Virus record (IMG/VR): IMGVR_UViG_3300044940_000144
Span: 1-64,000 of that record
Length of the DNA stretch: 64,000 nucleotides
Strand: one strand, 5' to 3'
Source of the DNA: a virus
The position numbers and the translations under genes are program-made. Below are positions 12,884 through 32,860 of this stretch, in pieces (within the stretch, counting starts at the first letter, position 1; the number at the start of each line of letters is the position of its first letter). Under the pieces are notes generated by a model, which saw nothing but the letters and a program-made list of their open reading frames with translations, was not told where the DNA came from and made no database searches.

Positions 12884-13214
12884 GCCCCTTGCTTAGCTTG
12901 GCCTTGCGTTTTCGGAGCTCGGTTTGAGCCTGTCGAGAGGCGTACTGCGCCCAGTGCTGGGACGCAGTACAGGCCAAATAGCAGCGTTTTCCTTGCGTTT
13001 CCATCGCCCGGAATCGCCCGCCGTTTCGGCCGAGAGACTCGAACCCGCCCAGGTAACGCTTTACCGGGTGGGGGGTAACTCCCCCGCTCGTCTCCCCTGC
13101 GCTCGCCTCGCGGCGACGCTCACGGCATGTGTGGCACCCGCCCGCTCTCTCCATTTTGCGGACGAGCCCACTCTGGGTTTTGTGCCAACTGGGGGTCGTC
13201 GCGATGGCCCCCAC
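12879..13214 (-). CDS. Hypothetical Cys-containing protein
   Basis: ORF with CHTC and CYLAC. Confidence 0.4.
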   Translation of the reverse strand: MGAIATTPSWHKTQSGLVRKMERAGGCHTCRERRREASAGETSGGVTPHPVKRYLGGFESLGRNGGRFRAMETQGKRCYLACTASQHWAQYASRQAQTELRKRKAKLSKGR

Positions 13215-15617: not shown

Positions 15618-15683
15618 CGAATGACCCCCGAGAAAGCCCCTGCCTTCAGGCATGGGAAGGAATCGGGGCTACACGCGTCGCTG
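15618..15683 (+). mobile_element. Isolated IS200/IS605 left-end copy
   Basis: 15621-15683 equals the reverse complement of 24096-24158 with one mismatch; preceded by TTTAT (intact element: TTTAC). Confidence 0.9.
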
Positions 15684-17141
15684 TTTGCGCTTTTTTTGCT
15701 CTCGCTTTTCGCGGGCGATCTTGTCTTTGAGGATCTGGATCATCTGCGAGTCGCCGGGATCGAACCCCTCGTGGACGGCGAGCCAGTCTTCTTCACTGTC
15801 AAGAGCAAAATAGACGCGATCTGAGATGACGTCGCTCCTTGACAAGCCTGCGTCGCGCAATGCCCGGGCGGCTGCCTTTTTGTCCGGCTGAGCCGCTATC
15901 CAGGCGCCGATCAGGCCGTGCCCGTAATCTAGGCCCCCGTATTCCTTTTTCACGCGCTTTACAAGGTCCTTCGCGCTCTCATCGCCGACCTTTATGACGC
16001 TGAGCTTCGGAGGGGCGTCGTCTCGGCCGACCACCTTCACGTGCAGCAAGCGCTGCCCGTATTCATCCACGTCGTTGGATATGACCTTCAGGCGCATATT
16101 GCGGCCGATCAGAAACTCGTCGAGGAGCCCCATGCCCATGTTGTCTGGGAGCATAGTGCTGATCTCGCCAGCGTGAGTTCCCCGTGGCACGTCGATCACC
16201 ATGACGGCTTCTGCATCCGAATAGAGCGCGCGATCGTCCGGGTACGTCGAGATATACGCCGGGTCGGTGTATACGGTGCCAGGCTTGAGCTTTTCCATCC
16301 ACGACGTGTCGCCCTCGACCCTGCGGGTCACCACTTGGTCGTAGGAGGTCGGTTCCTCGGCCAAAAGGGCGTCGAGGCCTTCGATGGTCTTGAAGATGCT
16401 TTTTTCTTCGTGGGGGAGAACCTCACCACGTCGCAGCGCGGTGTTGATGCGGTACGAGCCGCCGATTCCCATATAGTCGAGGGCAGCTCGCTTTTGTTCT
16501 TCGTAGCTGATCGTTTGTGGGTAATCGTCGTCAAGCAGGTCGAACAGATCGCTGACGTCTTCGATGGCTTCCCGGTCACCCAAAAGCGAGGAGAGCTGGT
16601 CCTCCACCTTGCGCTTAGCACGTTTCAGTGAGCGGGATGCGTTTTGATTGCCGATCAGGTCGGCAAAGTCGATGCGCTCATCCCACTCATTTCTGATGTT
16701 GTCCAGGTCGATCGATGCCTTTGTAAGACGCTTACGCGACGCCGACGGGATCTTATCTTTTCGGATACGTCCTTTTTCGACGTCCTCATAAGTTTGTGCA
16801 ACGGCGTCGGCGTACCGGCGGGCGGCGTCGGAGTAAAGATCCTGCAGGTCCTTGTCGCTGGCGGTGAGGATTGCGTTGTGGCGCCCGCGGGGTGAGACCT
16901 CATCGAGCGTCTTGCCGCGCAGACGGGGCGGACCCTCCCGGATAAGGCCGCCCTTTCCCAGGTAGACATGCGTGCCCTTGATGGTGCGCCAGCCGATGTC
17001 GCCGGGCTCGATGTGCCAGTTGATGCCACCGGGGATGTTGGCAAGGCGGCGGCGAGCCTCTAACAGCAGCGTGACGACGGCGGCCTTGTCTTGCAGGATG
17101 CTTCTGCGATTCCTGCCTTGGGTTGTGCGCACGCCGCGCAT
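15669..17141 (-). CDS. VIP2-like ADP-ribosyltransferase
   Basis: Y..SYRINTALR, VVTRR (R), AYIST, DEFLIGR (catalytic E); N-terminal WRTIKGTHV motif. Confidence 0.8.
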   Translation of the reverse strand: MRGVRTTQGRNRRSILQDKAAVVTLLLEARRRLANIPGGINWHIEPGDIGWRTIKGTHVYLGKGGLIREGPPRLRGKTLDEVSPRGRHNAILTASDKDLQDLYSDAARRYADAVAQTYEDVEKGRIRKDKIPSASRKRLTKASIDLDNIRNEWDERIDFADLIGNQNASRSLKRAKRKVEDQLSSLLGDREAIEDVSDLFDLLDDDYPQTISYEEQKRAALDYMGIGGSYRINTALRRGEVLPHEEKSIFKTIEGLDALLAEEPTSYDQVVTRRVEGDTSWMEKLKPGTVYTDPAYISTYPDDRALYSDAEAVMVIDVPRGTHAGEISTMLPDNMGMGLLDEFLIGRNMRLKVISNDVDEYGQRLLHVKVVGRDDAPPKLSVIKVGDESAKDLVKRVKKEYGGLDYGHGLIGAWIAAQPDKKAAARALRDAGLSRSDVISDRVYFALDSEEDWLAVHEGFDPGDSQMIQILKDKIAREKREQKKRKQRRV

Positions 17142-22550: not shown

Positions 22551-22901
22551 CTAAGCATAGCACCTACCCATGCTCAGTTGACGCGCGCCGCCTCCGGCGA
22601 TCTTGGACATTTGAATCTCGTTCAGCGACGCCACCGGGGCGCCCAGGACGACGTTGACCAGGGGACGATACATGCGGCCGGTATCGAGATTGGCGATCAC
22701 CAGTGGTAGCCAGCGGCGGTGCACCGACGCCGCCCCGTGCTCGACGAGCGTGGTCAGGCTTATATCGGAGATGACAGCGCACGCGCCGGACGGCGAGGAG
22801 AGCACCATCGCCCACATGGGCGGTGGGTCGTCGCTTGGGTTCGGCTTGACCCCGAAGTGGACGCATAGATCGCGCAGGCGATCACGTCTGCTCATCGTCA
22901 T
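22551..22901 (-). CDS. Hypothetical protein
   Basis: ORF with AAAGGGGGAACC RBS. Confidence 0.6.
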   Translation of the reverse strand: MTMSRRDRLRDLCVHFGVKPNPSDDPPPMWAMVLSSPSGACAVISDISLTTLVEHGAASVHRRWLPLVIANLDTGRMYRPLVNVVLGAPVASLNEIQMSKIAGGGARQLSMGRCYA

Positions 22902-24081
22902 CGGTTCCCCCTTTCCTTTTTGACATCCTCCCCACGGCTAAGGCCCGGGGATTCCCGCCTCGGCCTGCACCCTTTCCTCGAAAAGGAGAAGGATGTCTTA
23001 CGGCGTCAGCAGCGGCAGGGTTGAGACCAGCCCTGGCCAGAATCGCTCTGGCAGCGTTTCTGTCGCGGTCGCTCACCAGCCCGCAGGCATGGCAGACGAA
23101 CTCGCGCTTTGCCAGTTCCAACCGCTGCTTGGCTCTCGCTCCACAGTTGGAACAGGTCATAGTCGTGTAGGCGGGCGGCACCAGCACCACCTTCCGGCCC
23201 GCCCGCTCGGCGTGTTCGATGAGGATGCGTTTCGCGACCCCGATGGCGGCGTCCTGAGCCTTGCGGGCCATCCTGGTCTTGGCGAGGAACGACGGCTTGA
23301 AGTCCTCGACGGCGAGCGCCCCGTGGTCGCGCACGACGGACACAGCCCACTTGCGGGCGGTGTCCTGTCGCTGTCGGACGACTTTCTTGGCAACTTTGGC
23401 CGCGTCCTGTTTCGCCTTGCGGTAGCCGACGGACCCCGCCTTGCCCCGCTCTGGCTTACGGCGAGCCATCCGTCGCTGGTACTTGGCGAGCGCCTTCGCC
23501 GCTTTGCGGGCGTACTGCGGATGCGGAAGGTCGTAGGCGGGGTCGGTGGTGGTGGCGATTGTCTTGACGCCCCAGTCGATGCCGATGGCGGCATCCGAAT
23601 CGGCCATCGGTTCGTCGTTCCGACGGACGACGAAACTGGCGTACCAATGGCCGAGAGAGTCACGGTACACCCGCACACTGGTCGGTTCGGACGGCAGGTC
23701 GCGGGACCACACGACAGGGATGCTCAGCCCACCGGCCAGACGCAGACGCCCATCCTTGAGCGAGAAGCCGCAGCGCGTGTAGTTGAGACTTGGCATGGTC
23801 CTGCGGGAGGACTTGAACTTGCGCCGCCCCTTGCCTTCGGCTCGCTTGGCGCGGAAGTTCCTCAACTCCTGCTGTTGCACGACGCTGCTACCGGCGCGGA
23901 GCCATTCGTGCTCGCGCCGCCATGCGGTCAGGTCACTGTCGCGGACCCATGTGCCCGTGGTCCGGAGCATGGCGACGGACTGGTTCCACAGCCAGCGGGT
24001 GCGGTGCCATTCGGAGATGAGCGCTCGCTCCGCCTTCGCACCGGGGCGCAGACGGTACTGGTAGCGCAAGACCGTCCCCAC
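22882..24081 (-). CDS. tnpB: RNA-guided endonuclease TnpB
   Basis: YRLRP, GIDWG (RuvC-I), VEDF (RuvC-II), CSNCG/CHACG, DRDRNAA (RuvC-III); TATGAT-7nt-GTG. Confidence 0.95.
   Translation of the reverse strand: MGTVLRYQYRLRPGAKAERALISEWHRTRWLWNQSVAMLRTTGTWVRDSDLTAWRREHEWLRAGSSVVQQQELRNFRAKRAEGKGRRKFKSSRRTMPSLNYTRCGFSLKDGRLRLAGGLSIPVVWSRDLPSEPTSVRVYRDSLGHWYASFVVRRNDEPMADSDAAIGIDWGVKTIATTTDPAYDLPHPQYARKAAKALAKYQRRMARRKPERGKAGSVGYRKAKQDAAKVAKKVVRQRQDTARKWAVSVVRDHGALAVEDFKPSFLAKTRMARKAQDAAIGVAKRILIEHAERAGRKVVLVPPAYTTMTCSNCGARAKQRLELAKREFVCHACGLVSDRDRNAARAILARAGLNPAAADAVRHPSPFRGKGAGRGGNPRALAVGRMSKRKGGTDDDEQT
22900..23060 (-). ncRNA. Predicted omegaRNA (reRNA) scaffold plus guide
   Basis: Overlaps the tnpB 3' end; scaffold ends at TCAA (22920-22923); guide would start AAAGGAAAGGGGGAACCGAT; 5' boundary approximate. 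Confidence 0.6.
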
Positions 24082-24161
24082 GTATTGGATCATACCAGCG
24101 ACGCGTGTAGCCCCGATTCCTTCCCATGCCTGAAGGCAGGGGCTTCCTCGGGGGTCATCTG
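22920..24161 (-). mobile_element. Non-autonomous IS200/IS605-family element (tnpB only, IS1341-like)
   Basis: TTTAC then left end with hairpin; right end GGGGAGGATGTCAA; no tnpA. Confidence 0.85.
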
Positions 24162-24171
24162 GTAAAGCAAG

Positions 24172-24253
24172 TGGGGGCCGAGGGAGTCGAACCCTCATGC
24201 CTTGCGGCGCCGGATTTTGAGTCCGGTGCGTATGCCAGTTCCGCCAGACCCCC
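24172..24253 (-). tRNA. tRNA-Leu(CAA)
   Basis: GGGGGTC/GGCCCCC acceptor stem, CCGGA-CTCAAAA-TCCGG anticodon arm, long variable arm, GGTTCGACTCC; CCA not encoded. Confidence 0.95.
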
Positions 24254-28314: not shown

Positions 28315-28779
28315 CTAGCTGCTAAGCAGCGCTAGGGCGGCATCGACCAGCGCGATAGCCTGGTTCTCGCCGGTCAGGACATCGTCGTTGTACGCTTCCA
28401 CCAGACCGCGGCCATCGCCATCGGCACGGACGAAGCCGGTGTCGATGATGGCTTGGCACAGAGCGCGCTCGGCCTCCTTCACCGGGTCTGGCGTGGAGTC
28501 GTCGTCCATGTACGTCGCATTCGACGTATCGACTCCGGTCACCAGGCCGAGCATGCCCTCAAGGCATGCTGCGCAAAAGACATCGCCCGAGTCGGGCGTG
28601 ACCTCCATCGGGTTGCGGACCGCGAACTCATGGTCCTCCCCCTCGAAGGAGCGCACGATCAGGTAATCGTTCCTGGTCCAGGCGATCTGACTGGATTCGT
28701 ACAGCTCACGAATGCGCTGGAGAATCTCCGGCGCAGATGCGTGTCGCACGCACCCGACGATGTCGGTCGTGACGGTCAT
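28315..28779 (-). CDS. DUF6197-like hypothetical protein
   Basis: WTR..CLEG..YNDD..AIALVDAAL pattern. Confidence 0.5.
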   Translation of the reverse strand: MTVTTDIVGCVRHASAPEILQRIRELYESSQIAWTRNDYLIVRSFEGEDHEFAVRNPMEVTPDSGDVFCAACLEGMLGLVTGVDTSNATYMDDDSTPDPVKEAERALCQAIIDTGFVRADGDGRGLVEAYNDDVLTGENQAIALVDAALALLSS

Positions 28780-28850
28780 ATGTGGTTCCCCCTTGTGTGG
28801 GTTTTCGATGTCCAGCCCTTCGTTATGGGCTGGGCGGCCTAAGCCACTTT

Positions 28851-28918
28851 GGGCTACCGCTTCCCGGACGTCGGTGACGTCCGGGATTCATGCCTGCCCA
28901 GGGCAATCGTCAGGCGGC
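28851..28918 (-). ncRNA. Hammerhead ribozyme, type I, variant core (U15.1-A16.1)
   Basis: gccgc CUGACGA U ugcc-cugggca-ggca U GAAU cccggacguc-acc-gacguccggg AA^gcggu agccc. Confidence 0.7.
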
Positions 28919-31186: not shown

Positions 31187-31215
31187 GGTCCCCCCTTGTT
31201 GTGGTGTACGGTAGG

Positions 31216-31280
31216 CGAGCTACCGCGACCTCCCTTTGCAGGGAGGTTTCGGCCTTGCTCAAGGGCCATCGTCAGGCGGC
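31216..31280 (-). ncRNA. Hammerhead ribozyme, type I
   Basis: gccgc CUGACGA U ggcc-cuugagcaa-ggcc GAAAC cuccc-ugcaaa-gggag GUC^gcggu; cleavage after 31227. Confidence 0.9.
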
Positions 31281-32013: not shown

Positions 32014-32060
32014 TGTTTGTCCCCCCTTTTTGGTTGTGTGCGTTCCCATAATGCAGTAGC

Positions 32061-32125
32061 GCGAGCTACCGCGACCCCCCGCCAGGGGGGGTTTCGGCCT
32101 TGCTCAAGGGCCATCGTCAGGCGGC
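32061..32125 (-). ncRNA. Hammerhead ribozyme, type I
   Basis: Same core and stems I/II as 31216-31280, with a different stem III; cleavage after 32073. Confidence 0.9.
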
Positions 32126-32503: not shown

Positions 32504-32761
32504 CTACATCTTCATCCACCGGTAGCTGTCCTCGAACTGGCCCATCGCGGGCTCCAGGTAGTCGTCCGGGTCGGTGTACACCGCGCGGGACCGGACCCGG
32601 ATGTCGCCAACGATGTAGCCACGGTCGCGGGCCTCTTGGAACTCCCGGAGGAGCTGCTCGGCCGCGCCCTTGGCAGTGCCGTCGTGGTGCTCGCGACCGT
32701 CCTGATCATCGCCGACCCGCACGACGTGCAGCAGGTAGCGGTAGACAGTGTCGTCGCTCAC
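32504..32761 (-). CDS. Hypothetical protein, paralog of 32130-32399
   Basis: GTG start after AAGGGGGAACC. Confidence 0.75.
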   Translation of the reverse strand: MSDDTVYRYLLHVVRVGDDQDGREHHDGTAKGAAEQLLREFQEARDRGYIVGDIRVRSRAVYTDPDDYLEPAMGQFEDSYRWMKM

Positions 32762-32795
32762 GTTGGTTCCCCCTTCGTAGTGATGATGCAGTAGC

Positions 32796-32860
32796 GCGAG
32801 CTACCGCGACCCCCCGCCAGGGGGGGTTTCGGCCTTGCTCAAGGGCCATCGTCAGGCGGC
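32796..32860 (-). ncRNA. Hammerhead ribozyme, type I
   Basis: Identical to 32061-32125; cleavage after 32808. Confidence 0.9.

Follow-up and report, generated by a model that had tools for sequence, protein, structure and literature searches.

The closest described counterparts of the ribozyme analysed here are found among the natural hammerheads reported by Perreault et al. in 2011 (PMC3088659). A15.1-U16.1 is the most conserved pair of the hammerhead class, and its absence served in that work as a rejection criterion; variants with measured activity were re-admitted, one of them carrying U15.1-A16.1, and A15.1-U16.1 is thus a consensus feature and not an absolute one. The natural U15.1-A16.1 hammerhead cleaves itself less efficiently than typical ones, its low activity being blamed on the loss of the A15.1-G5 contact, and 15.1/16.1 mutants were at least 10-fold slower than the wild type in earlier work cited in the same paper. 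The U10.1-U11.1 mismatch at the start of stem II is natural and active as well, and it is the best-tolerated mispair. A pseudoknot between stems I and II occurs in about 40% of hammerheads and is needed for fast cleavage. Prophage hammerheads flank single genes, and tandem sets of them cleave in vitro and in vivo; tuned variants were discussed for haloviruses (all PMC3088659). The pairwise-mutagenesis paper PMC9901934 reports no 15.1-16.1 swap.

The hammerhead described below belongs to a virus record of 75,957 bp with direct terminal repeats, a part of which was analysed (the window, i.e. the whole stretch of 64,000 nucleotides; G+C 65%). The runs containing the window sequence are hot-spring or microbial-mat metagenomes, and the region of the variant is letter-identical in DNA contigs of three runs, all of one sample. 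Low-depth contigs of the same sample (run X3) covering 28688-28851 and 32546-32760 differ from the window by C>T only in one contig and by G>A only in another (20 changes in 164 bases and 10 in 215); either strand-specific, deamination-like hypermutation or an artefact of the library could lie behind this.

Direct reading and a covariance model place the variant, a type I hammerhead, at 28918-28850 on the minus strand. The sequence-only reading had given its extent as 28851-28918 and named no strand; the element does lie there, but it runs one base further, as its 5-bp pseudoknot ends at 28850. The first base of the variant is directly 3' of the TAA stop (28921-28919) of a 755-aa SNF2-type helicase ORF. 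On its 3' side follow two hairpins, the RBS AAGGGGGAA (28794-28786, minus) preceding the ATG (28779) of a DUF6197 gene, and then an AAA ATPase gene. The second of these 5'-UTR hairpins, CCAGCCC-AUAACGAA-GGGCUGG, is predicted by folding at 28812-28833 (minus), ahead of the RBS. No terminator-like site was found 3' of the variant on the minus strand of the window.

Anatomy of the variant copy

The minus strand, read 5' to 3' from 28918, is GCCGC CUGACGA U UGCC-CUGGGCA-GGCA U GAA U-CCCGGACGUC-ACC-GACGUCCGGG-A A / GCGGU A GCCCA, where the slash marks the predicted cleavage site. Parsing gives the type I order, with stem I open and stem-loops II and III closed, and the alignment to the covariance model places all three stems. 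Stem I is formed by the 5' strand GCCGC (28914-28918) and by GCGGU (28860-28856). Enclosed between them are the core bases C3 U4 G5 A6 C7 G8 A9 (CUGACGA, 28907-28913), the same as in three paralogs of this genome; stem-loop II (28890-28906) with the UGCC/GGCA stem and the loop CUGGGCA; the core bases G12 A13 A14 (GAA, 28887-28889, direct reading); and stem III (28862-28886), in which U15.1 (28886) pairs with A16.1 (28862) and is followed by the 10-bp GC-rich helix CCCGGACGUC/GACGUCCGGG and the loop ACC. The hammerhead consensus predicts cleavage 3' of A17 (28861, triplet GAA), between 28861 and 28860, and the 3' strand of stem I, GCGGU (28856-28860), would open the downstream RNA with a 5'-OH. 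The linker A and the pseudoknot tail GCCCA (28850-28855) complete the element. The tail is complementary to loop II, and the resulting pseudoknot of 5 bp, UGGGC (28900-28896) with GCCCA (28854-28850), provides the tertiary contact of stems I and II.

All consensus core bases are kept (CUGACGA, GAA and A17, position 17 accepting A, C or U and not G) except at two places. The consensus pair A15.1-U16.1 is replaced by U(28886)-A(28862), and the standard closing pair of stem II, usually G10.1-C11.1, is replaced by U(28906).U(28890) or, equivalently, by U-A with a U on each side. The core GAAU...AA with U15.1-A16.1 and the GAA triplet had been pointed out in the sequence-only reading together with an extra U before G12. 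All of these are read directly from the minus strand, and the extra U makes, with the U after A9, the U10.1-U11.1 mismatch of PMC3088659.

The hammerhead fold of the variant amounts to -30.8 kcal/mol against -31.2 kcal/mol for the MFE fold, a gap of 0.4 kcal/mol with the pseudoknot uncounted. Folded with its flanks, the variant yields an MFE structure other than the hammerhead, since both strands of the pseudoknot are taken up in a nested helix; this outcome counts neither for nor against the element. Next to the stems III of the paralogs, that of the variant is of unusual length and stability.

Paralogs, relatives and a second inverted pair

Three canonical type I copies are located on the minus strand at 31219-31280 (63.7 bits; upstream of the helicase gene), 32065-32125 (65.1 bits) and 32800-32860 (65.1 bits). 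They read GAAA...UC and have loop II CUUGAGCAA and the tail AGCUCG. The cleavage sites predicted for them are after 31227, 32073 and 32808. Their pseudoknot is UGAGC/GCUCG and that of the variant UGGGC/GCCCA; the loop II GAGC and tail GCUC of the paralogs, which had been set earlier against GGGC and GCCC of the variant, are all seen in the sequence. The loop II-tail pseudoknot deduced from this difference stands, both by the compensated change from A-U to G-C between the paralogous copies and by covariation across the 66 family members described below. GCCGCCUGACGAU and GCGGUAGC are exactly common to all four type I copies. Over stem I, CUGACGAU, GAA and GCGGUAGC (GCGGU-AGC) the variant is identical to the paralogs at 24 of 24 positions, whereas outside these blocks the identity is 13/57 to 16/56 (23-29%), and yet every helix is complementary.

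A covariance model (R1) was built from 22 canonical family members with the variant left out. On the window it scores the variant at 42.7 bits (E about 1e-8) and the three paralogs at 64-65 bits, the next-best match outside the family reaching 12 bits. The models of Rfam release 15 gave no match to the variant at gathering scores or at E<=10, and none to the three canonical paralogs (31212-31280, 32058-32125 and 32793-32860) even at E<=10. As the canonical copies are missed too, the failure reflects the models and not the variant; it would seem that the public models, as run here, do not cover the pseudoknotted type I subfamily with GCCGC/GCGGU as stem I and AGCC in the tail.

For the wider family, IMG/VR, JGI metagenomes and a set of prokaryote genomes, one for each species, were searched with a pattern in which only stem I, CUGAYGA, GAA and GCGGUAGC were fixed, and parsing and model search resulted in an alignment of 66 distinct well-formed members. 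The relatives, about 60 in number, come from metagenomes, Alphaproteobacteria, Streptomyces-free prophage regions etc. The variant has in common with them and with the paralogs stem I, CUGACGAU, GAA, the GCGGU-AGC tail, the pseudoknot geometry and the hairpin at the 5' end of the product. Unlike the variant, the paralogs and relatives have A15.1-U16.1, C, U or A at position 17 and mostly a G10.1-C11.1 start; the family model gives them 64-89 bits and the variant 42.7.

In the alignment of the 66 members, 95.4% of cells are standard-paired as opposed to 76.7% after shuffling, where 0 of 500 replicates attain the value, and 29-45% when the partners are slid. All four helices, the pseudoknot included, contain pairs changed on both sides. 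Stem I is paired in 99.4% of cells and the pseudoknot helix in 87.9%; two of the four pseudoknot pairs change on both sides, and one of them occurs as GC, AU, GU and CG. An alignment fitted by a model leans to the structure of that model; the slid controls and the double-sided changes are nevertheless clear.

The 15.1-16.1 pair is A-U in 64 of the 66 members, U-A in two and unpaired in none. The U.U start of stem II is found in six members, the variant, L061, L036, L038, L075 and L093, the last four of which have the normal A-U pair at 15.1-16.1. All six carry A17. The flipped pair is thus present in 2/6 members with the U.U start and in 0 of about 60 others. One further member, on a Shinella sp. 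contig (L120:2314-2378, minus), has an otherwise perfect core and stems but G17. G at position 17 normally blocks hammerhead cleavage. This copy is probably inactive, although it might possibly be another tolerated variant.

The second flipped case, L061, is a phage-like JGI metagenome contig of 2.1 kb from soil that shares no gene with the locus of the variant. Its element, on the minus strand at L061:933-997, reads GCCGC CUGAUGA U UCCC CUGGCC GGGA U GAA U GCCGC AAACCA GCGGC A A GCGGU A GCCA. MFE folding of this element returns the hammerhead junction. Common to both elements are the inverted 15.1-16.1 pair, A17 and the U...U flanking stem II; the sequences of stem II, stem III and the pseudoknot differ, and all differences are compensated. 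Part of the conservation of the L061 core follows of necessity from the pattern used in the search. The element is sense-oriented between a 52-aa ORF and the small gene that comes next, with a methyltransferase gene on its upstream side. The UGA stop of the 52-aa ORF upstream lies inside the CUGAUGA core (L061:1000-991, minus strand of the locus). With this stop inside the core and the helicase TAA abutting the variant, translation termination and ribozyme folding would overlap physically.

A search for the same variant in related genomes had been proposed in the sequence-only reading, and it was made in order to learn if kin phages retain the variant at the orthologous junction. No kin phage was found by megablast against phage records or by a search with the portal protein, and none of the helicase relatives in IMG/VR and INPHARED exceeds 35% identity. 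The closest helicase by protein search (70% identity) is on a 1.9-kb contig (P0002). A relaxed viral scan for the double variant with the 5' strand of stem I left free gave 12 matches, all lacking stems and approximately the number expected by chance.

The ribozyme array and its presumed transcript

A promoter-like site (TTGACA, 18 nt, TAGCAT, with upstream TG) is present at 35143-35114 on the minus strand. Comparison with the ORF map shows that nine consecutive gene junctions downstream of it (34730-28850, minus) each carry a hammerhead, the variant being the last. Five of these are type II-like copies on the minus strand (34730-34668, 33752-33689, 33413-33353, 32497-32437 and 31605-31546), detected as sub-threshold matches to RF02276 with 26-33 bits against a gathering score of 37. 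All five end with GUCGCACGGA, have a stem II of only about 2 bp and alternate with the four type I copies. A type III-like hammerhead with the core CUGAUGA...GAAAC also occurs at 25709-25650 (minus; RF00008, 36.1 bits, gathering score 48.5).

The predicted 3' product of the variant has an alternative hairpin at 28834-28860 (minus; MFE fold), in which GCGGUAGCC pairs with the downstream GGCU and GCCGC (28845-28834). This hairpin (28860-28834) cannot coexist with stem I and the pseudoknot. Analogous product hairpins are seen in the three paralogs (e.g. 31226-31208 and 32072-32053), in L061 and in most family members: GCGGU, often together with the pseudoknot tail, pairs a few bases downstream (e.g. 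GCGGU-AGCC-ACCGC). By MFE folding, the first five bases of the predicted 3' product are paired downstream in 57 of 67 family members and in 58% of shuffles. Refolding of this kind could prevent re-ligation, or it could shield the newly made 5' end.

Several other features were observed on the minus strand of the window. A TnpB-like ORF with OrfB_IS605 and Cas12f1-like TNB domains extends over 22885-24253, and its listed start overlaps a tRNA match at 24253-24172 (53.6 bits, CAA anticodon loop, long variable arm). An EGFOA RNA match at 13031-13182 (47.5 bits, gathering score 37.7) has a 39-nt insertion near its 5' end and adjoins the portal-like gene. Between the portal-like gene and other ORFs of the structural region lies a 490-aa ORF (15672-17141) with an ADP-ribosyltransferase exoenzyme domain (PF03496, 35.6 bits).

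Interpretation and comparison with known systems

The reading that we prefer, with a probability of roughly 0.6, is that the variant is a genuine and maintained pseudoknot-stabilised type I hammerhead, the last of nine ribozymes along an early phage transcript, and that it is expected to self-cleave. The early transcript would run leftward from the promoter-like site near 35.1 kb. Stems I-III would fold, and the pairing of loop II with the tail would align stems I and II; self-cleavage after A17, between 28861 and 28860, would then yield two messages, a helicase mRNA ending in the folded ribozyme and a DUF6197/AAA-ATPase mRNA that would have 5'-OH GCGGU as its first bases and refold into the terminal hairpin. 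Owing to U15.1-A16.1 and the U.U start of stem II, the variant probably cleaves more slowly than the three canonical copies. For continued cleavage as well as for the lower rate we argue from the published hammerheads.

The rival that survives best, which we consider rather unlikely, is a dead or nearly dead hammerhead relic, whose structure would be kept as a spacer or stabiliser, the junction being left unprocessed or cut by host RNases. The flipped pair is accompanied by a second non-consensus feature at 10.1/11.1, and the loss of activity by 10-fold or more in the 15.1/16.1 mutants and the low activity of the natural U-A variant (PMC3088659) are what such a relic would lead one to expect; the same can be said of the length and stability of stem III (11 bp), unusual in comparison with the paralogs and reminiscent of a stabiliser hairpin. 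The family also holds the probably inactive G17 copy, hence broken copies are not purged quickly. However, CUGACGA, GAA, stem I, the 5-bp pseudoknot and the tail of the variant are intact while the rest of it fell to 23-29% identity. Both sides of the 15.1-16.1 pair changed with pairing kept in two unrelated sequences, and the pair is broken in 0 of 66 members. A need for stability would hardly account for this, since one more U-A pair adds little to 10 G/C-rich pairs; with stem III already made of 10 strong pairs, the extra pair matters for the geometry of the junction and not for stability. A maintained working junction is favoured because the flip needs two specific substitutions, is seen in two unrelated sequences and is never found broken. 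The comparison of sequences thus argues for maintenance, be it tolerance or selection, over decay. Selection rather than decay had already been claimed in the sequence-only reading on the ground of two compensated changes. The 24/24 identity of stem I, core and tail and the never broken pair agree with this claim, but the flip is not compensated in the catalytic sense, because the pair swap probably loses the A15.1-G5 contact (PMC3088659).

That U10.1.U11.1, U15.1-A16.1 and A17 together make a distinct selected subclass with conditional cleavage (slow, hairpin-gated or at high temperature only) appears improbable to us. The U-A/U.U core would in this case have been selected for slow or high-temperature-only cleavage and would, with the hairpin 28860-28834, set the ratio of helicase-only to read-through mRNA; if so, phages would use the ribozyme as a timer or ratio-setter at particular gene junctions. 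A rate-tuned ribozyme controlling processing behind the helicase gene had been put forward in the sequence-only reading; such a function is a plausible hypothesis, but it is not supported as stated there. The recurrence of the double variant in L061 and the association of the flip with the U.U class (2/6 against 0 of about 60) speak in favour of such tuning, as do the ability of the downstream sequence to sequester the 3' strand of stem I and the pseudoknot tail, the origin of the sample from a hot-spring microbial mat and the discussion of variants of this kind for haloviruses (PMC3088659). The competitor hairpin, however, is shared by the canonical paralogs and by most of the family and is therefore not special to the variant, and the two U-A cases may simply go back to a common ancestor inside the U.U subgroup.

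Chance resemblance or an assembly artefact, in whose favour nothing was found besides the failure of the Rfam models, is refuted by the exact matches to the paralogs over 13 and 8 bases, the score of the family model (E about 1e-8) and the family covariation, and it is at odds with the correct order of three helices and a pseudoknot and with the identical sequence in contigs of three runs of one sample.

The variant, taken as a maintained hammerhead that is expected to cleave, opens no new class or mechanism. A claim of novelty for it cannot be upheld: each of its ingredients, namely U15.1-A16.1, the U.U start, the pseudoknot and the clustering of ribozymes in phages, had been described by 2011 (PMC3088659). 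What is added here is small and consists in the joint recurrence of the flipped pair and the U.U start in two phage contexts unrelated to each other. Breakers of the "invariant" A15.1-U16.1 rule are rare (2/66 in the subfamily) and are usually dropped by search filters. The second independent instance with both deviations and fully compensated helices suggests that this rule is softer in pseudoknot-stabilised hammerheads than minimal-construct mutagenesis implied. The variant and the three canonical copies, all within one transcript, form a natural matched set for the cost of the flip.

Among the known systems, the U15.1-A16.1 hammerhead of Perreault et al. 2011 resembles the variant in the inverted pair, in the otherwise consensus sequence and in its mobile-element or phage-like context (PMC3088659). 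The variant differs from it in sequence and host and has, in addition, the U.U start and the 5-bp loop II/tail pseudoknot. The construct oligo of phage PaP3 in the supplement of PMC3088659 has the same GA-UU..stem..AU-GAA layout (GAUUCC...GGAUGAAA) and is likewise from a phage intergenic region; judging from the oligo sequence, PaP3 would be the U.U example of that paper. In contrast to the variant, it keeps GAAA (A15.1), and the oligo table lists it as a potential type III hammerhead.

The prophage clusters (the A. tumefaciens ardA trio, A. caulinodans and C. scindens; PMC3088659) are similar to the present array in that a pseudoknot replaces the loop-loop contact and the ribozymes flank single genes. 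The prophage sets were shown to cleave in vitro, and that of A. tumefaciens also in vivo (PMC3088659). The array described here occupies nine consecutive junctions with type II and type I copies alternating, and it is denser than the two- and three-ribozyme arrangements tested in PMC3088659.
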